Assembly: GCA_032718475.1 (NCBI GenBank)
Contig: JAUCBJ010004955.1
Location: forward strand, 1 to 64,000
DNA length: 64,000 nucleotides
Source: Nemertoderma westbladi
Lineage: Eukaryota; Animalia; Xenacoelomorpha
Direction: 5' to 3'
Below, one piece after another: positions 189 through 43,391 of this stretch. The notes below the pieces were generated by a model that ran no database searches, was not told the DNA's origin, and worked only from the letters and a program-made list of their open reading frames with translations. The position numbers were made by a program, and so were the translations under genes. Each line of letters opens with the position of its first letter. Position 1 is the stretch's first letter.

Positions 189-1847
189 CTACTGTATTAG
201 TGTTATTACCCCCCCCCCGCTCGTACGATCACACCAGTTTCGTGTCCGTAGTGTGGTCCCTGTCAGTGGAGTATTAATAAACGTATCCACGGCCCCCGGC
301 TCCTCTGAAATGTTCGAGCCTGCCCCTCTCTCAGACACTCCTGCCCGCGCCCGTTCCACCTCGCGCGCGTGTACAGCCGTATACTCTACGAATTTGTCTC
401 GCTGTTTCTCTAACTCTATTCGGCCACTCTCCACTCTTATTACTTTCTCCTTTGACTCTCGTTTTTCCTGCTCAATCAATTCCAGCTCTCTCCTAATCCC
501 CTCTCTTCTTCTCGCCTTACGCTCTTTGCGTTCACTTTCCTCTCTCGCCTCACGTTTCTCGCGTTCGCTTTCCTCTCTCGCCTCTCGTTTCTCGCGTTCC
601 GCATCGCGTTTCTCCTCGCGTTCCCTTCGTTCCCTTCTCTCTCTCGCCTCGCGTTCCTCGCGTTCTCTCTCGCGTTCCGCCTCGCGTTTCTCGCGTTCTG
701 CTTCGCGTTTCTCGCGTTCTGCCTCGCGTTCTCTCTCGCGTTCCCTCTCTTCCCTCAACTCTATCTCCTCACACTCCCTAAGGTTCCTCGCGGCCCTTTC
801 GCCCCTCTCCCTCAACTCTTTAATCGACACCGTTTCCCTCTCTAGCATCACTCTCCCCTCCTCTAGCCGTCTACCTAGTTCTCTATTCGCCTCTACCACT
901 ACATTGAAACGGTGTCTAGCCTCTATCTCTCTCACCCGTCTTTCTTTTTCGGAGGATGTAACAGACTTATCGGTTGCGACGGATTCCCTCCGCCTTCCCG
1001 ACCCGCTGGCTCTCCCCCCCTTTCCGGAACTCCCTCCGACCGACGAGACCGAACCCGCGGGGTCAACCTCGGGTTCGCCCTCCTCTGGTCTGTTCCAACC
1101 TACTGTCTTTATACCCCGGGCATCGATTAAGTATGGCCCTAAGTACACTACCCTAGGTTCTATACTCCCATACCGCCATGAGTCATACAGTTCCTCGGCG
1201 ACCCAAGTCGCTCTCTCCTCGGCCAATCCTCTCTGCCCGAAGCGCACTAGATAATATAAATGTCTATTCGACTCACCTAGTCCTAGGTTCAGTTTTACCT
1301 CGTCTATCCTCTTCCCTTCTCTGGCCTCCTTTATCAGTCTCCGGGTCGCGTTGTAGGCCCGTCGAAGTCGCTCGGAAACCCCGACGTCCTCGTCGCCGAC
1401 CCCTCGTCCGTCTCTCCGGGTTCGACGTCGTACCGGCGGCCCCACCGTCGCCGTTCCGGTGGGCCGTGCGTCGCCCTCGGCCTGCGGTTGGCCGGCGACA
1501 TCGGTGTCGACATCCCCGTCGTCTCTCCGGGTCCGGCGTCGTACCGTCGGCCCCACCGTCGCCGTCTCGGTGGGCCGTTCGTCGCCCTCGGCCTGTGGCT
1601 GGCCCGCGACGTCGGTATCGACATCCCCGCTGTGTGTCGACTCGTCTCTCTCTTCCTCGAGCCCGATCTCTCTATCCTCCGGCTCGATCTCTGGTTCCAG
1701 GCGGTCCCCCTCTACTCGAATCCCCGGTTCGCCCGGTACGGATGGCTCCGGTGTCGTGGGCGTATATCGCCTGGTCGCGGCCTCGCGGATCGTTAGATCG
1801 TCGTCGTCCGGGGTCCGCGTGGGTGTCACTTCACCCGACTCGCTCAT
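189..1847 (-). CDS. Accessory ORF2 of BEL element A: acidic/repetitive N-terminus, chromodomain-like segment, long E/R coiled coil
   Basis: 552-aa ORF in the same orientation as gag and ~480 bp downstream of it. Contains a tandem ~37-aa repeat (GDVDTDVAGQPQAEGD...), the motif IDEV...YYLVRF...EERATWVAEEL and an (EREKREA)n tract. Confidence 0.65.
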   Translation of the reverse strand: MSESGEVTPTRTPDDDDLTIREAATRRYTPTTPEPSVPGEPGIRVEGDRLEPEIEPEDREIGLEEERDESTHSGDVDTDVAGQPQAEGDERPTETATVGPTVRRRTRRDDGDVDTDVAGQPQAEGDARPTGTATVGPPVRRRTRRDGRGVGDEDVGVSERLRRAYNATRRLIKEAREGKRIDEVKLNLGLGESNRHLYYLVRFGQRGLAEERATWVAEELYDSWRYGSIEPRVVYLGPYLIDARGIKTVGWNRPEEGEPEVDPAGSVSSVGGSSGKGGRASGSGRRRESVATDKSVTSSEKERRVREIEARHRFNVVVEANRELGRRLEEGRVMLERETVSIKELRERGERAARNLRECEEIELREEREREREREAEREKREAEREKREAEREREREEREARERRERREREEKRDAEREKREAREESEREKREAREESERKERKARRREGIRRELELIEQEKRESKEKVIRVESGRIELEKQRDKFVEYTAVHAREVERARAGVSERGAGSNISEEPGAVDTFINTPLTGTTLRTRNWCDRTSGGGVITLIQ

Positions 1848-2326
1848 CTTTTGTCTGTTGGTGGCTGGTGGTATCTGAGTCTATTAGGCTAGGGCAGCAG
1901 TTGTTGTTTAGTTACTGTGACGGGATCATCCGGAGATGAACCCGATTTATCCTGTTTTAGTTCACGCGTCCCCGCCGTGTGAAAGAGTGTAAGTTGAGGT
2001 TACTGTTGTTCGTTATATTGTGATCTTGAGACGTGATATAGATATAGATATAGATTGATGTTATACACTGACGTTCACAGGTTGACGGGATGACGGTAAC
2101 TAAAATCCCGGTACTTCCCTAATTGTAACTTACTGTACCACCAGTAACACTGAGATAACTGAGGTAATATGATTACTGCTTACTGGTTATATCGCACGGT
2201 GGCCTTATTGCTACTCAATCGGTGCCAGCCCCCCTCTGATTGGTTGCTACCCTTGTTGGCGCCCTTTGAGGTGTTCCCGTTCACCCCAGCTATTCTCTCC
2301 CTTGTCAGGATACTAACCCCTGACCC

Positions 2327-5300
2327 TTATTGTGTGCTTCTCCTTCCCATTCTGTTGGGGAGACACGAGTTGGTTTGGGACCTAATCTCGTGTCCCCCAA
2401 TATTGCTTATTGGCTTAACTTTGTGGAGTATTGGCGGGATTGATTCGCTAACAGCGTGCAACAAGATATGATGTTTCGCACCACACTTTGCACACCTTAT
2501 GTCAGAGAAACAGGTTCGCCGTTGGTGTCCTTGTCTGAGGCAATTATAACATAACCGCTTATCCCACATGACTTCGCGTCTCTCTGTTAATGATTTCTTT
2601 AGAAATTCATCACACCTATTCAAATGGTGGGTCCCGTCGCACAGCGCACATTTCGGTTTGATGTTACTTACCTTAGTCTGAGTCACATTGTGTACACTGG
2701 CCCTTTCTTCGGGTTTTCTCACCTGAATTCTCTTGGGAGACGTGGGAGGAGTTTTTCTTACCTGTTCCCTCCTGTCATTTGTTCGAGACTTGAATTTACT
2801 TACCTGATCTTTAGGCATTTTATTCACGTAATAAGATCTATCCGTGTCCTTCCCGCTATCTTCTCCTTGAGAAGTCTGGCTTTCGCCGTCATCGGTATAA
2901 CATACTGGTGTTACTTTTCTCCTAGAGACGGGTTTTTCACTTACCTTGTTTTCCGGTGTTTTCTCCCTAGACAGTTTCAGGAGCTGTAATTTCACTTCTC
3001 CATCTAGGAATGACATGAGATCAGCCATGGTAGGGTCTCGCCGTTGTTGTTCCATCATATATAACACTTTCTTATCCCAGCGTGTACCTACTCCACCTTT
3101 CGGTAAAGTAGAAGCCACTGCTCTAATAACCATAGTGTTCTGATACTCATGAGACTTACCTAGCCAATCTAATTGTCTGCAGATCTCCTGGATCTCATCG
3201 GAAAACTCGATAATTCCGCTACTAATAAACTTTCGGGGCGCTACTAACTTTGCATACAAGTACCCAGCGATATTATTCCTATTACCATACCTGATGTTTA
3301 GTGTATCCCAAACTTGTCTTAATCCGTCTGGATGTCCAATAAACTTTAACGCCATTAACTTGGGAGATCCTTCCAAGCACTCGATGAGGTATCTAAGTTT
3401 CTCTCCATTAGATAGTACAGAGTTCTGTATGTTATCTTTGTAATATTCATTAAAAGGTAACCATTTCATCTCATCTCCATTGAACTTGACGATCTCTCCA
3501 ACCTTTACCGCTTGCCGGGCTTCGGTTCTAGCCATTTGACGCGTAAAACTTTCTTGGGCCATCGTGTTATTTAATATCGAGTTATCGGTATATAAATTTC
3601 TCGGATTATGATCCGGTCTATAGGGAATATCATTATCAACAGGTCTATAATTACCCTTAATAGGGTTCACTATAGGAGTTTCTACTTCGCTAGCAGTATA
3701 AATGCGTGTAGGCTCCACACCTTGCGCATGAGATACTTCAGACCTAACGGGTTGACACATTGTTACAGGGGGTGGTGGTATACCCTTTTGTAAATTTACT
3801 AATTTATCGCGCTCTAGCGCGATATTTTGCTGCACTTCTTGCAACTCTAACTTACTTTCCCTCACTGTTCCCTTTAAATGTTGGACAGTCCCTTCCAACT
3901 CTCGGACCTGTTGGGAGGAGCGTATCCGATTCTCCTTCATCTCTCCGAGGAGAATATCCATCCCCCGCCGTCTCTCATCTACCCAATCAACCGCCGAAAC
4001 GGGATCCGCCAACGTCGTAGCGGGCAGACGAGGGACAACGGGCGACAAATTTGGAATATTTCGCTCGGGGTCCAGGACCTGAACTGTCTCCTGGGCAGTT
4101 CTACGGGGCACAGGTAGCTTAGTGCTATGCAGAGGGAATTTATAGGTAGCTTCAGGGAGCACAGGTGTATCTATTACCGAAGGGGTGATTTCAAGAACAG
4201 GCCTACTTATTTCAGGCTCATCTACTATAGTAGGGAGTCTTTCTATTGTAATTATTTGGTCTGTTGGTTCTGTACTCTCTAAGTTGGTGTTATTTAGTTG
4301 CCTTCTAACAGCTGGAGGCAAATCAGGCAATTTCTGACGGTGGAATGTTCTTTTACGTCTGCTTAGGCGGGATCGATTTCCTCCGCCTTCAGTGTCGGTG
4401 GTATCGCCTTCCTCAGATGATGTATAACCTTGTCGTTTGGGAGTAGATCGATTCATCATCTGCATATTACTAGCTGTTAACTGTTTATTAAAGTTATCTT
4501 GCCTCTCTTGAAGATTTTCCAACTCTAGTTGGGTTGTCTCTTCAGATGCCCTCCGTTCTGCTTCTGCCACTGCTATCTTTCTTTCCGCTTCTGCCGCTGC
4601 CGCTTTCCTTTCCGCTTCTACGGCTGCAGCTGCCGCTTTTGCCTCTGCCGCTGCCGCTTTCCTTTCCGCTTCTACGGCTGCAGCTGCCGCTTTTGCCTCT
4701 GCCGCTGCCTCTGCTGCCTTTCTTTCCGCTTCTGCCGCTGCCACTGCCGCTGCTGCTGTCTTTCTATCTTCTATACGTTTTTTCCTTACTTGTTCTTCCT
4801 TTTCTCTAGCGATGCGGAGTTGTTCATCGAATTTAGCTTGGTTCGCAGCTAACCTATCCACATCGATCGCATCTAACACAAGTTTGGCTCCTTCGCTATT
4901 AGGGCTAAGTCCCTCTAGCCTTCTCCTCAACTCTTCATCTCCCAAAAAACGCTGATAGTCTGACAGATAGATATCAATGGCATCCTTCTTATGCGGTTTC
5001 TCTGCCGTCGCTTCACTTTCCACTTGGGAAAAAGTAGCGTCCGTCGATTCTCCATGTGTTGAGCGCTCCTCCAACTGAGCTTTCCACTGAGCTGCTCCTT
5101 GAACCTGGCGTCTCACCCTTTGAAGCCAAGTCTTTACGGCAACTTGCAACGACGTGTCTTGTCTTCTTTTAGAAGCCTCCTCAAAGGCGGATAAGATTAG
5201 CCTAATTCGCAGAACTCTTTCTCTAACTTGATAAAGCAGCTGTCCCTGCTCTTGAGGTCCTTGAGGTTGTTTAAACAGCTGTCTTTCTACTCGCTCCATA

Positions 5301-5935
5301 GAGCTGAAGAATCCCTGTGCGTATCCGGCTGCGGACCTCTTCCATACAGCTGGATCGATGGTTTCCTTGGCTACTCCCATCCGGTGTATGTCTTCCCAGG
5401 CAGCTTCTGATAAATCAAACGGGAGTCCGGGTCCGGGGAAGTTCCATTGCGACTCGACAATAGACTTCAATTCTTCCCTCGTGTACCCCGCATAACTATC
5501 TCTAGTTGATCGTTGACTCCTCGCCCAATCGATCTGGTGTTCTTCCACCGCGATCAATAACCTAGTGAGTACGGCTGCAGGAAGGATGAGAAGGGGATCC
5601 GTATAAACCGCATCCGTCATCTCTGCTCCGCGCTCGGGTGTCAGCTCTACAGTATCCTCACTACTGGAGCTGCTGGGCCGCTGAGGAATAAGTTCTTGAC
5701 TCGCGGGTTGTTGCTGTTCCGCTGCTTCTTGGTCCCGCTTGACCTGAGCTCGAGTGCCTATGATAGACCTACGATGTTGGACTAGCCTAGGTTCTGTTAT
5801 TACTACTGGAGGGATGACCTTCCTCACAGTGGGAGGTGAACTGAATTTACGACCAGACGGTTGTACGTCTCTATCTGAGTCGCAGATAGTTACATCTAAT
5901 ATACTGTCTGACAGGTTCTGCTTAGTATCAGACAT
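2327..5935 (-). CDS. gag: BEL/Pao Gag (DUF1759-like capsid region plus three zinc knuckles), no protease or pol fused
   Basis: KFNGDEMKWLPF...EKLRYLIECLEG...LNIRYG motif; knuckles CALCDGTHHLNRC, CYNCLRQGHQRRTC and CAKCGAKHHILLH, typical of BEL/Pao. The ORF stops ~40 aa after the last knuckle. Confidence 0.9.
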   Translation of the reverse strand: MSDTKQNLSDSILDVTICDSDRDVQPSGRKFSSPPTVRKVIPPVVITEPRLVQHRRSIIGTRAQVKRDQEAAEQQQPASQELIPQRPSSSSSEDTVELTPERGAEMTDAVYTDPLLILPAAVLTRLLIAVEEHQIDWARSQRSTRDSYAGYTREELKSIVESQWNFPGPGLPFDLSEAAWEDIHRMGVAKETIDPAVWKRSAAGYAQGFFSSMERVERQLFKQPQGPQEQGQLLYQVRERVLRIRLILSAFEEASKRRQDTSLQVAVKTWLQRVRRQVQGAAQWKAQLEERSTHGESTDATFSQVESEATAEKPHKKDAIDIYLSDYQRFLGDEELRRRLEGLSPNSEGAKLVLDAIDVDRLAANQAKFDEQLRIAREKEEQVRKKRIEDRKTAAAAVAAAEAERKAAEAAAEAKAAAAAVEAERKAAAAEAKAAAAAVEAERKAAAAEAERKIAVAEAERRASEETTQLELENLQERQDNFNKQLTASNMQMMNRSTPKRQGYTSSEEGDTTDTEGGGNRSRLSRRKRTFHRQKLPDLPPAVRRQLNNTNLESTEPTDQIITIERLPTIVDEPEISRPVLEITPSVIDTPVLPEATYKFPLHSTKLPVPRRTAQETVQVLDPERNIPNLSPVVPRLPATTLADPVSAVDWVDERRRGMDILLGEMKENRIRSSQQVRELEGTVQHLKGTVRESKLELQEVQQNIALERDKLVNLQKGIPPPPVTMCQPVRSEVSHAQGVEPTRIYTASEVETPIVNPIKGNYRPVDNDIPYRPDHNPRNLYTDNSILNNTMAQESFTRQMARTEARQAVKVGEIVKFNGDEMKWLPFNEYYKDNIQNSVLSNGEKLRYLIECLEGSPKLMALKFIGHPDGLRQVWDTLNIRYGNRNNIAGYLYAKLVAPRKFISSGIIEFSDEIQEICRQLDWLGKSHEYQNTMVIRAVASTLPKGGVGTRWDKKVLYMMEQQRRDPTMADLMSFLDGEVKLQLLKLSREKTPENKVSEKPVSRRKVTPVCYTDDGESQTSQGEDSGKDTDRSYYVNKMPKDQVSKFKSRTNDRREQVRKTPPTSPKRIQVRKPEERASVHNVTQTKVSNIKPKCALCDGTHHLNRCDEFLKKSLTERREVMWDKRLCYNCLRQGHQRRTCFSDIRCAKCGAKHHILLHAVSESIPPILHKVKPISNIGGHEIRSQTNSCLPNRMGRRSTQ

Positions 5936-6021
5936 GACTATGTATACCGTTGAATGTCTACTACTGTATTACAGTCTGAGCAAGTCTAGTAACTCAGTAT
6001 TAACTGCTAGCCTAATAATTA

Positions 6022-6312: not shown

Positions 6313-7259
6313 TCAATTATTTTAGAATAATTGAATTTCTGAACTTTAGGGTTACTTGGTTACTTTAACTTACTTTCTTACCGCTATTTGAGCAGTAGAC
6401 CAACTGATATTGAGACCTAATTGTTGTATGGCAGGCCTACTATTTATAAATCGTTAGATTTGATTTATAATATATATATACCCGTTTTAATGGGTTTAGT
6501 CAATGTTTGAAATAAATGTTATTATTTCTGGGGTAATCACTACACAAAGCGGTACGCTTTCAGTGAAGTGTTACGTACAGGACACTAAAACAAATGATTC
6601 TAATTTACCTAAGTTACTTAATTCTACAAATTACGTACAATTCGGGTTGAGATTACAATCTCTAAATAAACACAAAAATTTACAAAAAACACAAAATACG
6701 AATTTTTAGGGTAATTTTACAAGAAGTCTACTAACCAGCCTAACAAAGGGTTAGAAATCTGGTTATTACAACGGACAGGGTACTACGGTATTTGAAATAA
6801 TAAGTAGTAGTAAATACACTGCGTTGTCCAGATAGGAAAATACCACCGCCTGACGACCTATAGCCGTATCGCTATAGGTTCTACGTTATGTATCACGGAG
6901 TGTTCCTACCTAGAAATTAATAGAGCTAATCGAACGTGCCTATTAACCACTTTACAACACAAATATAATGCCTACACTAATTACTTTCGGAAAGCACTGT
7001 ACACTAAACCCTAAATTAGGTACGAGTACTTGTACAACAGATAATCAGTAGTTAAATATACTTGAACAGCTAAAAGAACCACGGCATCTGCTGGAGTGAC
7101 CGATGCACAAAATCACCAGTCTTTACCTACGCCAAGCAGCCCGTGTAGTACCGGGGTTAATTTAACTATAGCGGTATGTATAACAAACACAATTACTGTA
7201 GGAACAAACTTGGGGAATGAATGTTGCGAATAATCGCATAAACTCTGAATAATAAATAT

Positions 7260-8100
7260 TACGCTACGCGCACAAACTACTCAAACAAAATGCAGACTAC
7301 TATCAAGCCTAAACAAACTACAGGACATGCAGACTCCGAAATGATTAGGGAGTATGCGTTCTAACCCAGTAGTACGACTTATTCTTTAATTGGGGGTTTA
7401 CCTTACAGCATTCGCTGCCCCTACTTCCTAACCGTACTTAATCGGACAAGTGATCTACACACGCTGCAATCCGTTCAGACCTAATAACAGCCAGACAACT
7501 ATCCAGCCTACAAATTATCTAAATAAAATTATACGCTACCCGTACAGACTTACACAAACAAAGTACAGACTAAACGATGGCAGACTACTCACAAGCCTAA
7601 ATAAACTACAGGACATGCAGACCCCGAAATGATTAGGGAGTATGCGTTCTAACCCAGTAGTACGACTTATTCTTTAATTGGGGGTTTACCTTACAGCATT
7701 CGCTGCCCCTACTTCCTAACCGTACTTAATCGGACAGGTGATCTACACACACTGCAATCCGTTCAGACCTAACAACAGCCAGACAACTATCCAGCCTACA
7801 AATTATCTAAATAAATATTATACGCTACCCGTACAGACTTATACAAACAAAGTACAGACTAAACGATGGCAGACTACTCTCAAGCCTAAATAAACTACAG
7901 GACATGCAGACTCCGAAATGATTAGGGAGTATGCGTTCTAACCCAGTAGTACGACTTATTCTTTAATTGGGGGTTTACCTTACAGCATTCGCTGCCCCTA
8001 CTTCCTAACCGTACTTAATCGGACAGGTGATCTACACACACTGCAATCCGTTCAGACTTAACAGCAATCAGACAACAGCTCAGCCTACAAATCGTCTGTA
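7260..8100. repeat. ~289-bp tandem repeat (about 3 copies) in the leader of element A
   Basis: CCGAAATGATTAGGGAGTATGCGTTCTAACCCAGTAG recurs at ~7336, ~7624 and ~7913; two diverged copies in element B (~35360-35940). Confidence 0.9.
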
Positions 8101-8269: not shown

Positions 8270-8420
8270 GGAAGTACCGGTTAGGACAGCTAGGCCTACG
8301 GACCTACAGAAGTACCGGTTCTGGCAGTTGGGCCTACTGACCTACGGCAGTACCGGTTCTAGCGGTTGGGCCTACTGACCTACTGAAGTACCGTTCAGGT
8401 TTACCGGTTGACCGGTACTT
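8270..8420. repeat. ~39-bp tandem repeat (AGTACCGGTT...GGCCTAC(T/G)GACCTAC), about 3.5 copies, next to the primer site
   Basis: Units directly visible starting near 8273, 8311, 8349 and 8387. Confidence 0.8.
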
Positions 8421-8451
8421 TCAACTTTATTGCTTACTGCAATAAAGAAGC

Positions 8452-8463
8452 TATATCCTTTAA
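8452..8463 (-). promoter_or_regulatory. Non-tRNA primer-binding site of element A (TTAAAGGATATA), complementary to LTR 9212-9223
   Basis: Directly abuts the LTR end; no TGG start; 12/12 reverse-complement match inside the LTR. Confidence 0.75.
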
Positions 8464-9666
8464 TGTTCGCGCTTTTAGACCTTTGGCAGTTTAACCCGCC
8501 AATTTAAGATGTCTTCTAGATATTAAATCGCTTTTTAGCCTATGACAAGTATTTGATTCACTACACTAGTCGAAACCAATCTATGCGCGACCATTCACCC
8601 GCTGGATATTCCCGGGAGATTGGGTTCGACGGTTTAATTTTATTGCTATGTAAGCCTAATGTATTATTCGACTGACAGTATTATATAATCTCTGACAATA
8701 TTATTCACCTTCGGGAATATTAACAGTTCCTTTAGGACGTGGCGCTTTATTTATATAAACAGAGTTATGACTTAAACTACTCACAACGATATGGCTTAAT
8801 TATAATTCACATATATGACGCATTCTTTAGGAAATGCTTCTTTAACAGACTCACTCGTACACAATGCTGCACAATACTGCACACTAATCTGCCAATCTTC
8901 ACTGATTTTAGTCACATATAAAAGGAACACAGACTGACTCATGTAGGGTCTATCAAATAACATTAGATTCACTTCAAACCACTTTAACATAAGTCACAAT
9001 CGTTATTGGTAACCTTTCTCTCTTACCTTCGGTATATCAAGAATATTGGGTGCCGGGGTTATTTCTCGTTATTCCAATATAATAATTCATCAACAAATAT
9101 AATGAATAACCGACAACAAATAGCAGTATACGGTATTGATTGAGCAGGTAATTTTAGCAGCAGTTGTTCAAGTGATTAAAAGCCAGTTTGTTTGTTTTGG
9201 CAATCAGTCAGTTAAAGGATATATGTCCTTATAATTAAACCTACTAGTGTTGAGCTAAAAAGCAGAAAGCACAAAACACTAAAAGCCGTTCTTTCGTGGC
9301 TTTGAAAAACTCGTGACTACTACTCTATACGAGGATACTAACTACCCTTATTCCACGAAGTTCCCGTTCAACACAGAGAAAGAGCAGTGAGATAGGAAAA
9401 TTTCAGTTCAGTAGCTCTGTGATAGGTCAAAATCAAGGCTAACTCAAATTCTATTGGGAGATACAAAAACAAGGCTATGACGCAACCTCCCTAGGCTTGT
9501 TGGCCGATTAAACAGAGCCCAGATGCCTGCGTACAGCAAATCAGCCAATAAGCTGGTAACTTGCACTATTTTTAGCTATAGATCCCTTTAGAGAGTATTC
9601 TAGCGACTGGGGGGGGGAACTGGCCAACAAGGCAAACGAATCAGTTATCCCACAAAAGCTTTTACA
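8464..9666 (-). repeat. 5' LTR of BEL element A (1203 bp)
   Basis: Plus strand starts TGTTCGCGC and ends AAAAGCTTTTACA, as in the LTRs of element B. The left ~700 bp align with B; the right ~430 bp (U3) have diverged. Confidence 0.9.
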
Positions 9667-12481: not shown

Positions 12482-14366
12482 GCATCCCTAGGTATTATTA
12501 TTATAAAGAGCGTCAGCCTGCGTTTAATAAATATATTTTAATACAAAACAGGTCGAACGCAAAGAGGCTTATAATGAAGACGAGTACTGCATTGATTATA
12601 TTCCTATAAACCACCTGGCTTTGCATATTGAACGTGCGTTTGGAAATAAGTTCGTGCTACCCTTCCGTGGGTGGTAGATGTCGCGGTTATGTATTGGTGG
12701 GTGGGGGGAGGGGGGGGGGGGGTGCAGATTAAAAGGGGTGAACACGTACTGTCCCCCTTTCTTTGATTAATTGGTGGTGTGGGTTAATCTCTCATAACCT
12801 GATTTTGTGATACAGTCGCACAATTTTAATTTGTATCTCATAACTGGGCCTCGTGCTGCGCGAAGGCCCCACGAACGTGTCGTTCTGTCGTGTTCAATTT
12901 TAAACGTTAATAACTCGGCCAATCTTTGATGAAATCTATCCAAACTTGGTACACATGTTGTTTGGCAAAAGTTTAGAAATTTTCCAAGTAGAATTTCCGT
13001 GTGGCCTTCGAGAAGCTAAGATAATAGCAGTTAATTAGTTAATTAAGTTGATTACGGTGAAAACACCATTTTCAACCTGCCTTTTAAAGGAAATTAATTG
13101 TTTTACAGTATAAGATTTAAATAATTATACTTAAAAATTATACAGATATAATCCCCATACGCCATTCTATTATAGTTTTTAATTAGTTTAAGTGATTTGC
13201 TTTAATAAATGTGTCTTTAATTGATCTAAACGTAATTAAACCGCACAATTATTGAGTACAAATTTAATCCTTCCCATTATTGGTCAAGTCTCTGCTGGTG
13301 TGGAGCTAGCTGCTGGGAGTTGTGGCTGTAGACTAACCTGAGAGGAATTGTAATAGAGGCAACCAGTATTGCTATTCCAGCCCAATCACTGAATTGTGTT
13401 TATTATAGGCTGGACGGGCCGCATAACCGTTCGACTATTACTACTATTGCTATCTCAGTTAAATGACAGATATAATAACATAAATACAATCCATGGCATG
13501 GCTGTTGTAGGCTTCTGAAATAGTTTATTCCACAATGTATATGTCTGGTTATTTTTTAATTGAATTTTTGCAAAGTAGTAAAATTAATGTTCTTAAAAAT
13601 AATATTATTATTTTATATGTAACCTAGGAAATTAGCTACATTTTTTCGCTGCAGCTTTAAGAGTGTACATTGATTTAATATTATTTCAATACCCATATTA
13701 CTACATCGGCATAAGATGCGTTGGCGTTGTATCACACATCTCCACATATCACACATCTCCACATAGATGTATCAACAGTTACTCGCACAGTTTCGAAACT
13801 TCGCATAGTTATAACTGTATAAAGATCGTCAGTCTGCGTTTAGGAAAAATATTTTATGACAAAACAGGACAAGCGACGAGCGCAACGAGGCATATAATGA
13901 AGACGAGTACTGCGTTGACTAAATTATTATATAAACCACCTGGCTTCACATATTGATCGCATCCCTAGTTATTATTATTATAAAGATCGTCCTAGCTTGC
14001 GTTTAAGAAATATATTTAAATACAAAACAGGACGAACGCAAAGAGGCTTATAATGAAAACGAGTACTGCGTTTATTATACTGTATTCCTATAAACCACCT
14101 GGCTTTGCATATTTAACGTGCGATTGGAAATAAGTTCGTGCTACCCTTCCGTGGGTGGTAGATGTCGCGGTTATGTATTGGTGGTTGGGAAGGGTGGGGG
14201 GGGGGGGGGGGAGATTAAAAGGGGTGAACACGTACTGTCCACCTTTCTTTGATTGATTGGTGGTGTGGGTAAATTTCTCAAAACCTGATTTTGTGATACA
14301 GTCGCTGCATTTTAATTTGTATATAATAACCAAGCCTCGTGCTGCGCGAAGTCCCCACGAACGTGT
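12482..14366. repeat. Two ~400-bp copies of a non-coding interspersed repeat (12482-12880, 13959-14366) plus a partial copy at ~13815-13955; possibly a non-autonomous Helentron/DINE-like element
   Basis: Direct repeats from GCATCCCTAG to CCCCACGAACGTGT. Nearby CATGTGTACCAAGTTTGG (~11616) and its inverse CCAAACTTGGTACACATG (~12940). Family assignment is tentative. Confidence 0.6.
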
Positions 14367-16184
14367 ATATTTTTATCTGCGCTATTTTATTTATATTCCC
14401 GTATTCTACTGTATAATTTATACTGTAGACTTCTCCCAGAACATCGACCAAGGCACCAGTAATGACAGAACCAACGATATCAACACTCCAGCTCAAACTC
14501 AACTCCATGATCCAAATAACTCCACTTCCTCGACTGCCGAGTTACTCGAATCAGCCTATGGTGGAGTATGGTTCAATATATTATATTATTAGGATATCGC
14601 GGAGACATCACAGTCATAGCAGCGATTGAACAATAAAATCATCGATTTAAAATTACAAGTAAAAACTCACATAAAATATACACAACCTCTTATGCTATGG
14701 CTTAAAATTAAGTAATATATTTATTGAGTACGAATTTGTAATTAAAGTAAAATTATCTAAATATTAACACATTGACTTGTACTAATTTGCTACATAAAAC
14801 GATCCAAACTTTAAAAATCTGTTAAAATCAACAGTAGCTACACCAGCCTTAAAAATATTTAACGAATTAGATGATACTAAGTCGGATGGTAGAGAGTTCC
14901 AAGCTTGTACAATACGATTATTAAATACATTTTGAATTGCTACTGATCGACACGATAGCTGTTGCAGCTTATATGGATGACCGCGCGTCGCCCGCACAGG
15001 CGAAACTGTTTGAAAAATATAGGTAGCACGAATATTGACCAAACCATTAAATATTTTATACACTAAAATTATATCTACTGTATATGTATACGGCGCAGTT
15101 CAAGTGGTTCTAGCTTCAAATATTGTAGCCTACCGGGCATGGTGTATTTTTATCAAGATTGCACCGCATAAATAACCGTCGTGTAAAATAGCGCTGTACC
15201 GATTCTAGCTTATCACATAGCCCAATGAACGGCCTACTTTTAATAAACGGATTCCATACTGAACTGGCATATTCTACAATAGGTCTGGCATACACTTTGT
15301 AAGCAAATAAAATAGCGTTCATATCTTTAGTTGTAAAGCACCGGAATAATAAATTTATTGTTTTATAGCACTTAAAGACTATATTATCTATATGTATTTG
15401 AAAATATAGTTTACTATATTATCTATATGTATTTGAAAATATAGTTTATTGTCCATTTCGACACCCAAATCGCGGTGGCAATGGACATCTGCTAAGAGAT
15501 CTTGATTTATGTAATAATTGGATGTATTTGTACAGTTTCCTATCGATAATACTTTGCACTTCTCTTCTGCAATATTCAACTGCCATGTCTTCGACCAATT
15601 TGCAAATAAATCAAGATCTGACTGCAAAACGCTACGATCATCACTACAATTAAATTAAGAAAATAGTTTAGTATCATCTGCAAATAATCGCGCACTTGTA
15701 GCATTACTAAAAATATGTGGTAAGTCATTTACAAATGAGGAATAACAACGGCCCGCTACATGAACCTTGAGGGACGCCTGACTTAACGCGCTGATATTGT
15801 GAAAAACGATTGCGAATTTTTACTCGTTGAATGCGATCAAATAAAAAGCACTTGAACCAGCGGAGGACGTTCCCTGTTACACCAAGTGACTCTAGTTTAA
15901 CTAGTAACTTACTTACTACTACACTATCGAACGTTTTCGAGTAATCAATATATATAACATCCGTAAATTCGTGTCTATTTACACTATTTGACCAATGAAA
16001 AGTGCAATCGAGTAATTGCAAAACCGTGCTGCGATTTCTCAAGAAACCAAATTGTTGCTTAGATAAAAGATTGTTATTTAACAAATATTCAACTAATTCA
16101 AGTACCAATATACGTTCAAATAATCGGCATACTGCCGATGTAAGTGAAATAGGCCGATAATTAGCTGGTATGGAGCGTTATCAG

Positions 16185-16654
16185 TGTAATGCCGTGTTAC
16201 TATGTAAAGTTGTGCATGCCTGAATATTTAGTAGGAATGGAACTAGAATAACCAGAACTGACATTTAATATATAGTCACATAAATCACTAATAATATAGA
16301 CACTAAGTTAAAAGCATGAAGACCACATATGTAGTGTAGTAAACATTAATTCCCATTTTATTATCTTTTCTTATTCCGTTCTAAATAATATTTGTATGTC
16401 TACCATTAGTTACATTGTAGAATAGATAAAGTAGTTAGTTATGCATGGGAGAGATTATGTAGGATAACATTATATAAAGGCAAGACAGAAAACGGAAGGA
16501 AGAGAAAAACATTTCAGAAACATTAAAATCCTTAACTGTAATATTTTGATTATCATATTTTATTATTATCTCAATTATGTAAAGGTCATAATAAATATAG
16601 AAAACTAAATAAACTTTATTTTATTGAAATATAACATCCATAATAACCTTTACA
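16185..16654 (+). repeat. 5' LTR of the Gypsy element (470 bp)
   Basis: TGTAATGCCG...CCTTTACA, repeated at 20361-20831. Confidence 0.95.
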
Positions 16655-16656
16655 TT

Positions 16657-16674
16657 TGGTGACCCGGACGAGAT
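16657..16674 (+). promoter_or_regulatory. Primer-binding site, tRNA-Trp type
   Basis: TGGTGACCCGGACGAGAT lies 2 nt after the LTR and is close to the complement of the tRNA-Trp 3' end (TGGTGACCCCGACGTGAT). Confidence 0.85.
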
Positions 16675-16701
16675 CTGAACTTGCGAAACTCAAAAAAAAA
16701 A

Positions 16702-16732
<31 letters not shown>

Positions 16733-16757
16733 AAAAAGGAAAAAAAAAAGGAAAGAA

Positions 16758-17657
16758 ATGGCCGAAGGAGAGGAAAACACATTAGAAGAAATGGGTGGTG
16801 GTGATTTCGCAGTTCCACAACAAATCGCACGAGTAACCGTCAAACCTCCGGTATTTTTTCGATCCAACCCGAGTGTTTGGTTCCGGATGTTGGAATCTCA
16901 TTTTACTCTAGCAAACATCACGAATCCGGCTACAAAATTCCACCATGTCATGGCGAATCTTCCTGAAGATGTAGCGCTAAACATCGCAGGAGAAATTAAC
17001 ACTTATGACGAGATTAAATCAACGATATTACAACTTTATCAGAAAACTAAATCTGAACTGCTAGAAGAGGCTCTGGGACAGGTTTCGTTGGATGGGCAGA
17101 AACCGTCCTTAGTTTACCTTCGGATTAAAAGAAAACTAAACGAGTGTAACCTAACCGCTGATGACGACTTAGTGCGACATAAACTTCTGCAAGCTCTACC
17201 AATCAGTGCTCGATCTGCTTTAATAGCACACCAGCAACTGCCACCAGAAGCATTCGCAGCATTGGCCGATACAATCCTACAGTTTACCTCGCAATCCCCA
17301 CAACCAGTTCCTATGTTTAGTTCTGCACCAGTATACCAACCACAACCACCACCACAACCACGAGAATCGGGGATAATTAATCATGAGTACGACTCACCAC
17401 AACATCGACCGTCACGCTCACGTTTTCGTGATAACAACACTCCAGCCCGAGAATATAATACAAAACCAATAAGCGGAGTGATTTACCCATTTTCGGAAGG
17501 ACAGAAGCCGAAAATATGTCGCTTCCATATTTTCTATGGTGAGAAAGCAAGGCGTTGTAAACATTGGTGCCGGTGGCCAGCCGTAAAACCCAGTCATATA
17601 GTGGAATCGTCCAGACCAAACTCCCAAGCCACTTCTCCCACTCGCTCGGAAAACTAA
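16758..17657 (+). CDS. gag: Gypsy Gag (intact, 299 aa) with CHCC motif
   Basis: VKPPVFFRSNPSVWFRMLESHF N-terminal motif; CRFHIFYGEKARRCKHWC knuckle characteristic of the CsRn1 clade. Confidence 0.9.
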   Translation: MAEGEENTLEEMGGGDFAVPQQIARVTVKPPVFFRSNPSVWFRMLESHFTLANITNPATKFHHVMANLPEDVALNIAGEINTYDEIKSTILQLYQKTKSELLEEALGQVSLDGQKPSLVYLRIKRKLNECNLTADDDLVRHKLLQALPISARSALIAHQQLPPEAFAALADTILQFTSQSPQPVPMFSSAPVYQPQPPPQPRESGIINHEYDSPQHRPSRSRFRDNNTPAREYNTKPISGVIYPFSEGQKPKICRFHIFYGEKARRCKHWCRWPAVKPSHIVESSRPNSQATSPTRSEN

Positions 17658-20335
17658 CACCCCTCAGTGCCTCAGCTGCGACCACTGAGGGAGCTGCCGT
17701 CTTTAAAGTTACCGCAGCAATCTCAAACTCGATTGGTGACACTGAACTCAAGCTTCCCTTTCTTATTGACACTGGTTCTCAGGTAAGCATTATTCGTCCT
17801 GGAACAATAAAAAACTTTATTTGGGAATCTACAGATACTCAGTTACGCAGTGCTAGCGGTTCTCCGATAACTGTATTTGGAAAAGTAACTTTACACATTT
17901 TATTATTCCGACGAAAATTCTCATGGACATTTTACATTGCCGATGTACGGGATAATATAATTGGACTTGATTGTTGATTAAAAAGTTCAAAAATATTTAG
18001 TCGCATAGATCTCATTCGAGCCTATAATCAAATAGCAGTAGCTGAAGAAGATATACCCAAAACTGCTGTCACAACTCCATTTGGGCTGTTTGAATTTGTT
18101 CACATGCCTTATGGTCTACGTAATGCTGCACAAACATTTCAGCGCAAAATGAACGAAACACTTGGAGATCTTGAATTTGTATACCTCTACCAAGATGATA
18201 TTCTAATTCATAGCACAGATGTGGAAAAACATATGAAACATTTACGAGTTGTGTTCGAATGCCTCCGCCAACATAACTTGAAGGCAAACTTTGGTAAGTG
18301 CGATTGGTTAAAACTGCAACTAACCTTTTTAGGGTTTGAAGTATCAGCAGATGGGGTTGCCCCACCCAAAGATCGCATAGCTACACTCTCTGCATTACCT
18401 GAACCAAAGAGTTACTCTGAACTTCGCCGTATTATCGGAATGTTCAACTTTTATCGACGATTTGTACCTCAATTCAGCAAAATTGTGCACCCACTACAAA
18501 ATCTATTAGCTTCCACTCAACCTACCTCAAAGAAAATCCCACAACGGAAATTTCTAGACAAAGAATGGACTTTACAACACTCATCTGCATTTGCAGATCT
18601 AAAGTCGGCACTAACTAATTCCATCAAACTCCACCATCCTTCCCTGCAAGACTCCCCGTTGTCCCTGACAACCGATGCTTCTGCAGTTGCAATTGGTGCT
18701 GCACTTCATGAGGTTCACAGTGGAGAATAAACTGTTCCTCTCTTTTTCTATTCACGCCGTCTTACTCCAAAGGAATCAATAATGTCCGCATTCGAAAGGG
18801 AATTACTTGCTGCTTATGACAGCACAGTTTACTTTCGATCAATGATCGAAGGTCGCCATGTGACACTATATACTGATCAGAAACCACTTGTTGGAGCTTT
18901 TACTAAATCCGAGAGTTTATCTCCAAGACAAAATAGACAATTGTCTTATCTCACTGAATTTATTGATCAATTAGAATATATACCTGGCCAAGCTAATATA
19001 GTCGCCGACACACTCTCACGGAATATTGCTTCTACTTATATTGATTATTTTGGTTTAGATGATATTTCTAAATTACAAAAAGAAGAAATGACCCTCCTTC
19101 CAGAAAAACATTCATTGAAACTTAAAATATTTAAGACTGCTACTTTCCAGGACTTACTATGTGATATATCAATGGTACAACCGAGACCTATACTCCCCAG
19201 ACGATGTCGCAAGGTTATATTTGACGAATTACATAAACTAGCTCATCCTGGTGTTAAATCATCAATCCATCTGATTACAGACTGATACATATGGTATGAT
19301 GCCAAACGAGATATTACGAACTGGGTTCGTAGTTGTATACAATGCCAAAAAGCCAAGATTACAACACATGCTAAAGCACCACTGAAAGAGTTTCCACTCA
19401 CTTCACGATTCTCACATATCCACAGTGACATCGTCGGACCCTTACCTACACATTCAAGCCCAGAACGTTACATTGTAACTTTCATAGACTGCCATACTGG
19501 TTGGGTTGAAGCCAAACCAGTAGCCAGCATCACGGCAGAGGATATAGCCACTGCTTTTCTCGACGTTTGGTTTTCACGTTATGGAGTTCCCCTACACATG
19601 ACTACAGATCGCGGATCACAATTTGAATCGGAATTATTATCTCAAGTGTCCAAAGTTATTGGATTTCACCGTCTCCGCACTACAGCATACCACCCCCAGG
19701 CAAACGGAAAGATAGAACGCTTTCATAGAGTACTTAAGAATGCTCTAAAAGCCCGAGGTGAAGATTGGATACAAGCCCTTCCTGTCGTTTTATTCAGCTA
19801 CAGAATTACCCCCTCACACGTAACAGGAATATCCCCATTCGAACTAGTAACAGGATCAAAACCGATGTTACCAGCTATCATGATCAACCCCACTGATAGC
19901 ACTTACAACCTCGAGTTTGTAGATAAGTTACATCAACATATAACACAACTCGGTTTTATAGCACAAACTACAGCCATCGATCAAGACGAGACAAGACGAT
20001 ATTACAAACAAATTCATATTCCAAAAGACCTGGATACATGCGACAAAGTCTTCGTTCGAATCGATCGCATCCGAAAGCCGCTAGAGGCGCCATACAATGG
20101 CCCATTTAAAGTGGGTAGTAGATCGGACAAATACTTTACACTAATAACACCAAAAGGAGAACAAACTGTTTCTATTGACAGGTTAAAGCCCTGTTACGGA
20201 ACTCAGACTAAAGTAAAACAACAACCCGCAAAGGAACGAGAACAGCAACTACACACCGAACCCTCCTATAACACCATCAAAACTCGTAGTGGTTCGAAAA
20301 TTGTACATTTTAATCTTCCTAAAAATAACTCGTGA
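17648..20335 (+). pseudogene. pol: Gypsy pol (PR-RT-RH-IN) in the -1 frame, with an internal deletion of the RT N-terminus and three in-frame stops
   Basis: PR FLIDTGS; RT MPYGLRNA...YQDD; RH TTDAS...ADTLSR; IN HHCC, HSDIVGP, TDRGSQF, GKIERFH, GPF. Stops at 17975, 18728 and 19283. Confidence 0.92.
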
Positions 20336-20360
20336 TTCCATTTCAAAATTGGGGGAGATC

Positions 20361-20831
20361 TGTAATGCCGTGTTACTATGTAAAGTTGTGCATGCCTGAA
20401 TATTTAGTAGGAATGGAACTAGAATAACCAGAACTGACATTTAATATATAGTCACATAAATCACTAATAATATAGACACTAAGTTAAAAGCATGAAGACC
20501 ACATATGTAGTGTAGTAAACATTAATTCCCATTTTATTATCTTTTCTTATTCCGTTCTAAATAATATTTGTATGTCTACCATTAGTTACATTATAGAATA
20601 GATAAAGTAGTTAGTTATGCATGGGAGAGATTATCGTAGGATAACATTATATAAAGGCAAGACAGAAAACGAAAGGAAGAGAAAAACATTTCAGAAACAT
20701 TAAAATCCTTAACTGTAATATTTTGATTATCATATTTTATTATTATCTCAATTATGTAAAGGTCATAATAAATATAGAAAACTAAATAAACTTTATTTTA
20801 TTGAAATATAACATCCATAATAACCTTTACA
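20361..20831 (+). repeat. 3' LTR of the Gypsy element (471 bp)
   Basis: Copy of 16185-16654, preceded by the PPT and followed by the TSD. Confidence 0.95.
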
Positions 20832-23800
20832 TCAGCACATTTCCAAATCGCTGGAATTTCACCAGAATCCATTGAAAGTTGAAAAAGGTGACTAAGTGGG
20901 TGTGCAAGTTCACATCTCAATAGTTTCAATATTGTTGTTGGGATACCGTCTGGGCAGTGACTGTATTTCGCAGGTAATTTGCTCAATACCTTTATAACTT
21001 TACTCGGTGAAAAATTAACATTGGAAAATACAGAATCTGTAGCACGATCTACAACGGGGCAACAGTTATTATCCTCGACTCCCACAGATGAATATTGCTC
21101 AATGAGGCACTGACATTTGTCATCGTCTGATAGAGCAACACTGCCATCTGTTCGAGACAGAGGTGAAACAGTATTAAACGTATTTTTCCTACTGTTTACG
21201 TACTTGTAAAACGCATTTCGATCTCCACTGTTTAATACGTTTAATTCTTTCTTGCAACGAAACTCTCTCATTGCCTCGGAACAATTTACTATGGTTGGTT
21301 TGTACTGGGAGTATACTTAGGCACAAAAAGTTCAAAACTATTTAACATTTCGCTGTGAAAAATATCCCAAGATGACTGAACTGAATTATTATCACTTGTA
21401 ATATTTTCCCAATTTACAGATTGTAAATGGGACTTGATTCCCGGCAGGTCCATCTTCTGGAAACAGAAATGAGTTCCGTTTGGAATATTTTCCTCAGCCG
21501 CTGCACAACGAAAATTAAAACTAAACGCTGAGTGGTCACTGCTATCAAAGTTTGGTAGACTATTAACATTAAAAATATCATCATCAGCAGTATAAGAGAT
21601 CTAACATGTTATTTCCCCTAGTGGGGAAATCAACATATTGATTTAAATCTGTACGCACAAGCATTTCTGAAAATTCTATATTTATAGAACCTGAGTTTTG
21701 GCAGGGGTCCGACCAATTAAATTCCGGATAATTGATGTCCCCCATAATAACTGCTGAATGTGGAACATCACATAGCCAGTCTATCAAGTTACATACTAAT
21801 GTGTTATACCTATATAACGTATTTCTATCTTTATAGCAAGTGTCCAGCGACCTATAAATGCAAACAAATCTAAATTTGTTTCCCACATTGATATCAAGTG
21901 CGATGCACTCAACCTCCTCAAACTCGGAAGGAATAGGAATCTGGAGGGGATGTAGAGACCGTTTACAAATCAATGCAACTCCACCCATTGAACGGCTGGA
22001 ACGATCATCACGGAATATCTCGTACCCCTCCTGGTACTCCCCTAATACAGCAGAATCGGGTGTGGGTGGGTGTAAGTTCGTTTCGCATAATCCAATAATA
22101 GAAAATTCTCCAGAGGAGAGCATTGTTTCTAATTCAGTTTGTTTAGCAGACACTTGCCATGGATTGAACATTTGCATAGGCCTAGTACCCACGTAAATTT
22201 CCCACAGAGTTTGTGTTACTGTTTTTCTTTGTATCTAGGAAGATGACTCCGCGTCACTGTTTCCCGAATGCCGTGTTTCCACTGACGGCAATGATGCCGT
22301 CGAACTCGTCGGTGTTACTGACGGGCCGTGTTTCCACTGACGGCAATGATGCCGTCGAACTCGTCGGTGTTACTGACGGACTTCCCAGCATTAACGGAGT
22401 CGTTTCGCCCGATGTTGGCGCCGGTGCACCCGCGATCGATTCGGATACCGCGGATGCCGATCTCGATAACCGAGGAGGAATGTTTCTACCAGACTTCCTC
22501 CTGGAGGCTTGGTGGTGCTCAGCGACGCGGTATTCCTATTCGGTCAACGTAATTTCCGATTTCCAATCGACTCTCCCTTTAGAGTATCTCGTCCGCAATG
22601 AGTAGGATGCATTCCTGGTGTCGAAAACAATGGATAGGTTGCAGGGTTCACCTGCTGCTTTTGCAGCAGTACGGGCTAGGTAGCAGTGGGCGCGCAACAC
22701 ATCCCGATGGTCTCGCACTTCTGTGGAGATATTTGGGCGAAGAAAAATATTTTGTTAGTTTTGATAGTTTGCTAGTGATGCATCCCGATCCAAGGCAGAT
22801 ATAAATTTGATTTCAATCAATCCCGGGCGAATTGAGTTTGGCGATTTTCTGTGATGGACAACAGAGCAAGGTTCCCATGGTTTACACCCAATAGATTCGA
22901 GCAATGAAGCTACAAACTGGGTGTCGTTATCGTTATTCATTTGCTCTGGTACATTTTCTGCGAAAATGGATTTCTCCATCTCGTAATCGTGGGCATTTGA
23001 GCGAAGTGCATTGGTAACACAGTTTTGTATCTTCTCTTCGAGATTTCCTGCCACTGTAGCCGAACAAACATTCGATTTACTGTTGTCGTTGGATGCAGTG
23101 TTTCGTCCCCGCTTCCTTTTGCCTTAGACCACTCCCCGCAAACATCAGCAACTGTTAGCGCTTTTTGTATATTATGTTCATTCAATCTCAATTTTGTGTA
23201 ATTTGGAGCTTATAATAATTGGAGCTGAGAATTCATGCATCTATGACGTTATACTATACACTGCTGGTCTGACACAATAAACGGGATTGCGCTAGTGTAC
23301 CTGTCAACAAGGGCCGCTTACTGTATCGATCGTAGCTTCCCCTCTGCCTTCCTCTCATAAGTTTGTTTATTCTATAACTTATTTGGTTTAATACGGTATT
23401 TGATTATCTATTGTATTTGACTGAGATACGATACCGGGAGGGTGTGACAACACAATATAACAAGCGAATGGCTGACTAATTAATTCTATAAGGACTCAAG
23501 TGCGGTATTTGTGTTTCTCTTTAGGAAAAACGTATAGTGACTTGCCTCTATGTACGATTATATAAATATTTCTATCGCAATTAATTTATGACAACTCTCA
23601 ATCGTGATATAATTAATAATAAGAGCCTTTCTTATATTAATGGTCTGGTATATCGCCATATATTAATTATTTAGTAAGTCAGAGATAGAACAACACACTT
23701 CTATTCAATTGTCCAGATTACCACTGATACTTAATTGCATAGACCCACCTTATATTTGGCGCGTGTAAATCTCCTTGATTACGTAATATCGGTGGTATAA

Positions 23801-25675: not shown

Positions 25676-25801
25676 GTCCTCAAAATAATATAGAATTCAT
25701 CATAATATCTTTAATTTAAATTTGTCCCAAATAGGTTGTTTATGTCCCATATACTGTAGGGTGTTTGTGTCCCGTATAGGGTGTTTTTGTCCCAAATAGC
25801 A

Positions 25802-27021
25802 TGTTCGCGCTTTTAAGACTTTTGGCAGTTTAACCCGCCAAATCTATATGTCTTCTAGGTTATAAATCTACTCCAGCCTATGACAAGTATTGAACACCTA
25901 TAATAATTCTAACATTAGCCAAAGCCAGTCTGTGCGCGACCATTCACCCGCTGGATATACCCGGGAGACTGGATTTGGATGCTTTAATTTGATTGCGGTG
26001 CAGGCCTACCGTACTATTCGATTGATCGTTAATATATAATCTCTGACAAATATTATTCACTTTTGGGAAATATTAGCAGTTCCTTTAGGACGTGGCGCTC
26101 TATCTATTTAAACAGAGCTATGACTTACACTATACACAACGGTATGTCTTATAGATCACCAAAGTGCATTCTTTAGGAAATGCTTTGTTACTCGGTCAAG
26201 CACACACAGACTATTGCACACAACTGCACACTGAATTGCCGATATTCACTGATTTTAATCATATATAAAGAGAATAACAACCGACATTTGTAGGGCCTAT
26301 TAGGTAGCATTGAATTCACTACAAACCATGATAATGTATGTCGCAAATTGTTATATGTAACCTGTCTCTCTAACCTTAGTGTATCAAGAAGATTGGGTTT
26401 TCGGATCGTTATCAATATTCTTCCCAATAATAATATGTAAATGAACGATACAATTAACAACGCAGTAAATAGCAGTAAATAATGCAGCGAAAAGCAGTTT
26501 ACGTCAGGGTGCTTAATCAGATGCCGAGGTGCAAAACCGTGATAACCGTTTGATGATCTTATAATTAAAGACACTCTAATGTCAGAAAACATTCCCCGGC
26601 CGGTGTTCTAGGCGTGGGGGAAACGTCAGTACTGAACCCTGTAATTCTGCTGTACAGCTTTTACACAAAGAGGGAATCTCTGATTGGTCGAATGGCAAAA
26701 GGCTCCACGTGGACACAGCTGATAGATGTCGTCATTTTGAGCTGAGCAGAACAAAGAACCAAGGCAAGGCTCCGGGCAAGCTACACGTGTAAAGCTCAGC
26801 CGTTAGCTGTCGTCATAGTAACGACACTGTTTCAAGAGGATCTAGGGCGTTGCGTCATAGAATTGCTAATTATGTCCTCTAAAGTACACATACAGAAGAA
26901 ATAGCTTTTATGTCCCCTAAAAACACCGGTACAGCAATGACACGGCCTTTTATGCCTGCTAAACCAACTACAGAGTACTTTACGGGGAAAATAACCGGGC
27001 AATTCCGCAAAAGCTTTTACA
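25802..27021 (-). repeat. 3' LTR of BEL element B
   Basis: TGTTCGCGC...AAGCTTTTACA; direct repeat of 36295-37514. Confidence 0.95.
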
Positions 27022-30000: not shown

Positions 30001-30051
30001 ACGCCCACTCCATATGTTATTACGTTATGGAGTCCCTAGATATTTGTCGGA

Positions 30052-36283: not shown

Positions 36284-36294
36284 CAAACGGTTAT
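36284..36294 (-). promoter_or_regulatory. Non-tRNA primer-binding site of element B (ATAACCGTTTG), complementary to LTR 37035-37045
   Basis: Directly abuts the LTR end; 11/11 reverse-complement match inside the LTR. Confidence 0.75.
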
Positions 36295-43300: not shown

Positions 43301-43391
43301 GGAGAAACGAAATTGCGACAACTATGGAGAATCGGGATCTGGAAGGATCTCATTTCCACTGTCCGAGTTCGCTCGACCTAGTAGTAGTAGT
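40337..43391 (+). mobile_element. RTE-clade LINE, near full ORF (APE + RT), (GTA)n tail, ~13-bp TSD
   Basis: TSD AGTATTTTGAATA (40324-40336, 43392-43404); tail GTAGTAGTAGTAGTA; one frame break near 40725. Confidence 0.92.

Follow-up and report, generated by a model that had tools for sequence, protein, structure and literature searches.

Probable self-priming from their own LTR in two BEL/Pao retrotransposons of Nemertoderma westbladi

How does a BEL/Pao retrotransposon begin minus-strand DNA synthesis if no tRNA-type PBS follows its 5' LTR? According to the ICTV, replication of Belpaoviridae is tRNA-primed, with an 18-nt PBS complementary to the 3' end of host tRNA-Arg or tRNA-Gly (PMC8742986). 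The question is raised by element A, located in a 64-kb stretch of DNA from Nemertoderma westbladi (64,000 nt, hereafter the window). The original prediction held that element A lacks a TGG after its 5' LTR, that the abutting 12 nt are complementary to a site within this LTR, and that a BEL lineage has switched to tRNA-independent priming. Based on sequence and on the analogy with Tf1, we consider tRNA-independent self-priming from the element's own LTR-derived RNA the best reading for element A and its sister, element B, and a probable one.

Two related BEL/Pao elements in the window

Elements A and B are related to each other (~82-83% identity over leader and gag by blastn within the 64-kb window) and are BEL/Pao (Belpaoviridae) retrotransposons, an assignment made on their proteins. 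In a Pfam profile search, DUF1759 (PF03564) scored above cut-off in both. Both also possess a triple zinc knuckle, the three Cys-His knuckles of which can be aligned with BEL/Pao polyproteins, and the proteins found with B residues 570-1341 contain PF05380 and/or PF03564 in 21/21 cases. Since the proteins are BEL/Pao, A and B do not fall within the Ty3/gypsy chromoviruses (Tf1/sushi). Structural marks of BEL/Pao were found in B as well, namely two TG...CA LTRs, the TSD TGCTA and a purine tract, while A comprises one LTR only. The two elements consist of the following parts:

2454-5968, minus strand: element A gag with DUF1759 and triple zinc knuckle, truncated by a nested insertion
7244-8092, minus strand: tandem repeats of ~280-290 nt in the 2.5-kb leader of A (blastn)
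8464-9666, minus strand: element A 5' LTR, 1203 nt, TGTA...AACA, its 5' edge placed by a 14-nt identity to the B LTR start
25802-27021, minus strand: element B 3' LTR, with a primer copy at 26552-26542 and the TSD TGCTA at 25797-25801 and 37515-37519
27022-27030, minus strand: purine-rich tract before the B 3' LTR, by its sequence a putative PPT
30052-34077, minus strand: element B single ORF encoding gag, zinc knuckles and aspartic protease, then an RNase H C-terminal motif
36295-37514, minus strand: element B 5' LTR, 1220 nt, 10 differences to the 3' LTR

Element B is non-autonomous because RT and integrase are missing from its single ORF, as judged by domain and alignment comparison. No RT/RNase H partner element was found in the 64-kb window. 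The 3 kb between this ORF and the 3' LTR (27022-30051, minus strand) comprise short broken frames, possibly a decayed extra gene, and gave no meaningful Pfam match. With 10 differences in 1220 nt between its LTRs and an intact 5-bp TSD, B is young and moved recently with its present PBS. In element A, a nested LTR element that begins at 2453 interrupts the sequence directly behind the knuckles, and the rest of A lies outside the window. The nested LTR (1978-2453, minus strand; 476 nt, TG...CA) shows CAAT, TATA and TCAGT at canonical spacing. The PBS of the nested element starts with CGG, perhaps a changed TGG, and its repeat-rich ORF (189-1880, minus strand; 563 aa) gave no Pfam or Atlas match.

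The family of A is abundant and diverse. In run X1, 10,005 contigs align to 851 nt of the A LTR region, a figure that is not a copy number. A 20-nt LTR motif gave 0 matches in public metagenome and viral contigs, and a protein search of viral contigs yielded no relative. Besides these elements, the window contains non-LTR retrotransposon sequences, either ORFs or fragments, that encode endonuclease and/or RT domains (40669-43401, plus strand; 21584-22234 and 15725-16177, minus strand). It also contains a 400-nt repeat in two copies (12482-12880 and 13959-14366; 91% identical), inside which there is a run of C and one end of which is tandemly repeated. An intronless RPS10 frame (51981-52474, plus strand), 50-62% identical to animal orthologues among the matches listed, lies beside a 38-bp satellite array that extends from ~52635 onward with ~230 matches to the reference unit. 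The RPS10 matches listed, at least 120, belong to many animal phyla and place the host no more closely than as an animal on a long branch.

The LTR edge and its complement inside the LTR

The 3' edge of the A LTR at 8464 was set by homology to the B 3' LTR, which ends at the 5-bp TSD; two contigs of run X4, which match from 8464 on, back this edge as well. At this edge the sequence confirms that no TGG follows the 5' LTR of A, and none follows that of B, so the 18-nt tRNA-type PBS described by the ICTV is absent from both. Around the edge and within the LTR, A comprises the following features:

8425-8447, minus strand: predicted 9-bp hairpin just 3' of the PBS, its ATTGC/GCAAT core kept in B with different loops
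8452-8463, minus strand: element A PBS of non-tRNA type, adjoining the LTR, TTAAAGGATATA
8483-8502, minus strand: predicted hairpin at the U5 terminus, present in both elements (last 50 nt of A and B: -10.8 and -12.4 kcal/mol)
8633-8638, minus strand: ATTAAA kept in A and B by alignment, candidate poly(A) signal
9021-9026, minus strand: site in R/U5 resembling a splice donor and conserved in B at 36867; a spliced gag mRNA is predicted to use it
9212-9223, minus strand: predicted self-primer of element A, the 12-nt complement of the PBS, TATATCCTTTAA
9223-9225, minus strand: CAT, its register shared by A and B; candidate initiator, with the primer 3' end 13 nt away
9228-9239, minus strand: TTTAATTATAAG motif, the same in A and in the two B LTRs at 12/12 positions, 4 nt before the primer

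The A PBS (8463-8452) is the perfect complement of 9223-9212, just downstream of TTTAATTATAAG as had been claimed. It has a single such site in the LTR and lies at offset 0 from the terminal CA, so that the primer 3' end would sit exactly at the LTR edge. Among dinucleotide shuffles of the LTR, the 12-mer was obtained in 4/20,000, or in 13/20,000 if offsets 0-5 were allowed. The original prediction had further placed the site at the switch between alignable and unrelated parts of the two LTRs, which is approximately right only: the A/B LTR alignment extends to 9051 by blastn and is patchy to ~9140 by MAFFT, and TTTAATTATAAG plus primer form a separate conservation island, not exactly the border itself. 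AG sites were seen just before the A gag start (~5966, minus strand), along with the donor-like site at 9026 (36867 in B); a gag mRNA spliced from this donor would lack both the PBS and the leader of 2.5 kb with its many repeats.

Complementarity in another copy had been named as a test of the idea, and the sister element has a complement of its own:

36213-36223, minus strand: second, displaced PBS-like module in the B leader; it mismatches the primer at one position and has a hairpin of its own
36284-36294, minus strand: element B PBS ATAACCGTTTG, offset 0 from the LTR edge
37035-37045, minus strand: predicted self-primer of element B CAAACGGTTAT, complement of the B PBS
37051-37062, minus strand: TTTAATTATAAG motif in the B 5' LTR (motif search)

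In B, the PBS matches the LTR site over 11 nt, a match reached by 10/20,000 dinucleotide shuffles, and the complement in A and B is thus far beyond chance. The primer 3' end lies 16 nt after TTTAATTATAAG in A and B alike. If both pairs are compared at this fixed register, 11 Watson-Crick pairs are found in each, of which 6 are changed on both sides, 5 are identical and 0 are broken, a covariation drawn from two primer types of one family. Predicted duplex energies are -12.4 (A) and -13.4 kcal/mol (B) for the cognate pairs and -1.1 and -3.3 kcal/mol for the swapped ones. The A/B pair represents a natural compensatory-mutant set. Moreover, in A as in B the paired stretch extends precisely to the LTR edge and no further, the place required for a primer 3' end. 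The matching site of B is the strongest evidence for the self-complement reading.

Could the complement be a relic, i.e., an inverted LTR segment put beside the LTR edge by a replication error and functionless now, or simply chance? Both elements are defective, and in A the site and the motif together make up a near-palindrome (5-bp hairpin, -3.4 kcal/mol). However, two separate events at the same register would be required, and B moved recently with this PBS. In addition, the displaced module of B has drifted by one base while the LTR-adjacent PBS is perfect, though this is one case. We thus regard a relic or chance as very improbable.

Another reading takes the pairing as a structural or regulatory long-range helix, such as a packaging or translation switch, with priming by some host RNA, e.g., a tRNA half. 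Half-tRNA priming exists in Copia lineages according to the accessible text of PMC6317226, and in-silico folding does not favour the helix in B (see below). Nevertheless, we give this reading little chance, since in A and B alike the LTR edge is the precise end of the helix, two PBSs that differ at 6/11 positions cannot both be fitted by a single host RNA, and neither a TGG nor a tRNA-like segment is present in A or B. No second LTR-leader helix of the kind seen in locus L042 (see below) is clearly common to A and B, the best others comprising 9-11 nt. The C. elegans element Cer7 encodes a tRNA-like primer of its own. This solution was rejected for A and B, as no tRNA-like segment was found in either element. 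No tRNA was found in the 64-kb window, and Rfam gave two weak matches, both outside A and B.

Further copies were sought among contigs of the sequencing runs, which we compared with A over 8410-9260; joints have short sides at 80% likeness. Copies match A over motif and primer and then diverge: two joints in X3 (sides of 26-29 nt) resume at 9213, loose contig ends lie at 9209 (X4) and 9210 (X5), and a joint in the B LTR resumes at 37034, adjoining the primer end. These break points near 9209-9213 coincide with the predicted cut, where minus strong-stop DNA would end and jump, and thereby hint weakly at such an event. One X5 contig (organism B) spans the PBS (8424-8506), and both of its differences lie outside it. 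Among the variants listed (40 of 59), none at a level of at least 20% falls inside the A PBS or primer, which carries no weight as evidence. A one-A insertion that turns TATAAG into TATAAAG accounts for about half of the depth in X4 and X5 and for 9% in X3.

RNA start, folding and a candidate mechanism

Judging from its sequence, TTTAATTATAAG might act as a promoter element, mark a 3' splice acceptor or serve as a poly(A)-type signal. Copies with one mismatch are located at 14047 and 38550 in the window; the former was rejected as part of a BEL LTR, since its surroundings are not BEL LTR as far as seen. TATAAG/TATAAAG looks like a TATA box, which would count against self-priming from the 5' copy. 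TATAAG lies only 10 nt before the A primer, and the nested LTR in the window has its TATA 31 nt from TCAGT, the usual distance. If TATAAG acted as a TATA box at this spacing, the RNA would start at ~9203, past the primer, and the 5' primer copy would not be transcribed. The primer would then be available only in the 3' LTR copy, probably of a second co-packaged RNA, and priming would be tRNA-independent but not Tf1-like. The TATA-like sequence, its 12/12 conservation and the canonical spacing in another LTR of the window speak for such a working TATA box. Yet no TCA-type initiator was found 24-40 nt after TTTAATTATAAG in A or B, and it is in this putative start region that other copies cease to match A. 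Furthermore, an RNA cut at its 3' copy would lose its 3' R, so that a second RNA would be needed. Overall, we consider a working TATA box at this position improbable.

For a start at 9224, TTTAATTATAAG is too close to serve as TATA box. In Zam LTRs, an AT-rich stretch immediately precedes a TCAT-type initiator (accessible text of PMC3601003). Candidate starts allowed by sequence signals lie near 9224, 9301 or 9203. For self-priming from the 5' copy we prefer the conserved CA at 9225-9224, which would give a capped 13-mer, while the upstream start at ~9301 (B: 37126) would fit equally. Pairs of TATA-like and initiator-like sequences are found ~80 nt further upstream (A 9329/9301, B 37158/37126), a weak indication obtained by pattern-picking. 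TATA-like boxes also occur 66 and 101 nt before the splice junction in the related loci L056 and L042 (see below), and primers in this BEL/Pao branch may be long ones with a long unpaired 5' part. That the primer represents the first nucleotides of the transcript, Tf1-fashion, may thus not hold. For Tf2, alternative starts decide whether the RNA can self-prime, as stated in the accessible part of PMC5341516.

Folding gave different pictures depending on element and start. With an RNA start at 9227-9223, A is predicted to fold into the helix (P about 0.9); with a start at 9302, the helix is disfavoured in A by 18 kcal/mol. In B, the helix is disfavoured, and forcing it costs 9-10 kcal/mol.

Our model of self-priming builds on the observed family assignment, absence of TGG, complement, fixed register, two-sided changes and loss of RT and integrase in B. 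By analogy with Tf1, we infer an RNA start at or upstream of 9224, the RNase H cut, priming, strand transfer and enzymes acting in trans. A 5' RNA segment ending at 9212 would fold back on the PBS across a loop of ~750 nt. RNase H of a partner copy would cut at the end of the 11-12 bp duplex, after 9212. From the 3' end released in this way, synthesis of minus-strand DNA would begin at the LTR edge itself. Strand transfer would follow into the 3' copy just past the primer, with the enzymes supplied in trans by partner copies. One might speculate that plus strong-stop copying of the primer could rewrite the PBS, which would result in joint turnover of primer and PBS.

Other BEL/Pao loci and known self-primed systems

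As an outside set, we used 75 BEL/Pao loci from metagenome contigs, taken out of the best 80 of 507 confirmed stretches. The 5' LTR end was resolved in 14/75, and every one of the 14 has a PBS of TGG type at an offset of 0-6, recognized by script in 13 and by eye in L036, with self-complements of only 4-6 nt. The Gypsy element of the window served as a further control, with its TGG PBS and a self-complement of at most 5 nt:

16185-20830, plus strand: Gypsy element; LTRs of 470 nt at 99.4% identity, PBS of TGG type, TSD ATCAG, pol interrupted by stops

The PBS of the BEL/Pao pol loci L030, L037 and L050 begins with TGGTGACCC, like that of the window Gypsy, as opposed to the usual BEL TGGTCC type.

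Another 34 loci have an unresolved LTR end and at least 300 nt upstream. A lenient TGG pattern matches 14/34, and 9 of the remaining 20 were read by eye: five are TGG-type and four are not (L042, L065, L056 and the truncated sister L054). A scan of all 34 for direct complements gave mostly chance-level 10-mers. Complements across a predicted GT-AG splice junction in the LTR were found in L065/L066 (11 nt), L056 (13 nt) and L042 (11 nt), located 2-3 nt after CA and reached by 0/100 shuffles each (TGG-type controls: 0/10); L042, L056 and L065 were picked by eye before the junction test, and their LTR ends are inferred ones. Besides its junction complement, L042 shows direct 14-nt and 12-nt leader helices. 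The 14-mer was rejected as primer pairing and is better read as a second helix, the junction complement lying at an earlier CA. For A and B, no splice-built primer above chance was obtained: A gave 11 nt at an unrelated place (7/100 shuffles) and B none.

If the outside loci are ranked against B segments, four of the top five are the L042, L056 and L065/L066 loci. A quick tree of 41 rows, built on gag, protease and RNase H tail alone, comprises B and 40/41 long ORFs, the duplicate L066 being left out. It places B, on a long branch, in a set of 10 rows with SH-aLRT 99, along with all four self-type, three TGG and two unlabelled rows. In a quick pol tree of 25 selected loci, three self-type rows lie within an 8-row subtree that also holds TGG rows. 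Self-type rows are thus mixed with TGG rows, with 3 label changes in the 41-row tree and 2 in the pol tree, which counts against the self-priming reading; a single origin of the self-type rows is conceivable. The covarying pair of B, the clean TGG controls and related families with the same logic support the predicted switch of a BEL lineage to tRNA-independent priming, which we consider likely. More tentatively, and as a reading that could well be wrong, a whole BEL/Pao branch might do without tRNA priming and cut its primer from a longer 5' RNA, in place of the cap-proximal 11-mer of Tf1. This primer would be assembled by splicing in L042, L056 and L065 and ready-made in the high-copy family of A and B, with primer and PBS rewritten together and each subfamily priming only itself.

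The main text of a BEL/Pao survey (PMC3118150) does not mention primer, PBS or tRNA, and the Sinbad paper (PMC554778) mentions neither PBS nor tRNA. The accessible parts of PMC8220671, PMC12451622, PMC3286476 and PMC6934838 hold nothing on BEL/Pao priming. Within the literature covered, largely open-access main texts, our search found no report of BEL/Pao self-priming. In a family defined as tRNA-primed, self-priming would be a variation on a mechanism already known from Ty3/gypsy and Ty1/copia. If true, BEL/Pao would be the third independent superfamily with self-priming after these two, and loss of tRNA-dependence would represent a recurrent solution. Such elements would be freed from the host tRNA supply and might escape silencing by tRNA fragments. 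Self-priming would also explain the blanks that PBS-based annotation leaves for them, and a simple screen is offered by the self-complement at the LTR edge, either direct or spliced.

Compared with the ICTV description of Belpaoviridae, A and B agree in the DUF1759 gag, the triple knuckle, the protease, the RNase H tail, a Metaviridae-like order, 1.2-kb TG...CA LTRs and the 5-bp TSD, and differ in lacking the tRNA-Arg/Gly PBS. With the splice-junction-primer loci L042, L056 and L065/L066 they share the absence of TGG, a self-complement of 11-13 nt at the CA end and, in the case of B, the same half of the tree. In contrast to these loci, the complement of A and B is contiguous in DNA and the PBS offset is 0 instead of 2-3.

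Among known elements, descriptions or predictions of self-priming exist for Tf1/sushi, for Tcn1 and for the TAR lineage of Copia (accessible text of PMC6317226), as well as for Tj1 (part of PMC4600332) and Tf2 (part of PMC5341516). For the TAR lineage of plant Ty1/copia (Houba, Osr-1), the accessible text of PMC6317226 predicts it from a complement of at least 10 nt located 0-5 nt after the 5' LTR. Such a complement is present in A and B as well, although they belong to another superfamily and kingdom and also show two-sided covariation. In Tf1, bases 1 to 11 of the transcript anneal to the PBS, and RNase H cleavage falls between base 11 and base 12 (PMC7175516 and PMC4600332, accessible parts). 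Like Tf1, Tf2, Tj1, the Tf1/sushi group and Tcn1, A and B possess a non-tRNA PBS at the LTR with a complement of ~11 nt to their own LTR. Regarding the Tf1-type criteria, they show an edge complement of at least 10 nt (12 and 11 nt, offset 0) and compensatory change. Unlike Tf1/sushi and Tcn1, they are BEL/Pao and not Ty3/gypsy, the loop between primer and PBS comprises ~750 nt, B is non-autonomous and the cut is a predicted one. While the Tf1 primer consists of the first RNA bases, the A/B primer is placed by its sequence only and the start is not fixed to it. Taken together, A and B stand outside the Tf1/sushi group and, by this analogy, quite likely work like Tf1.
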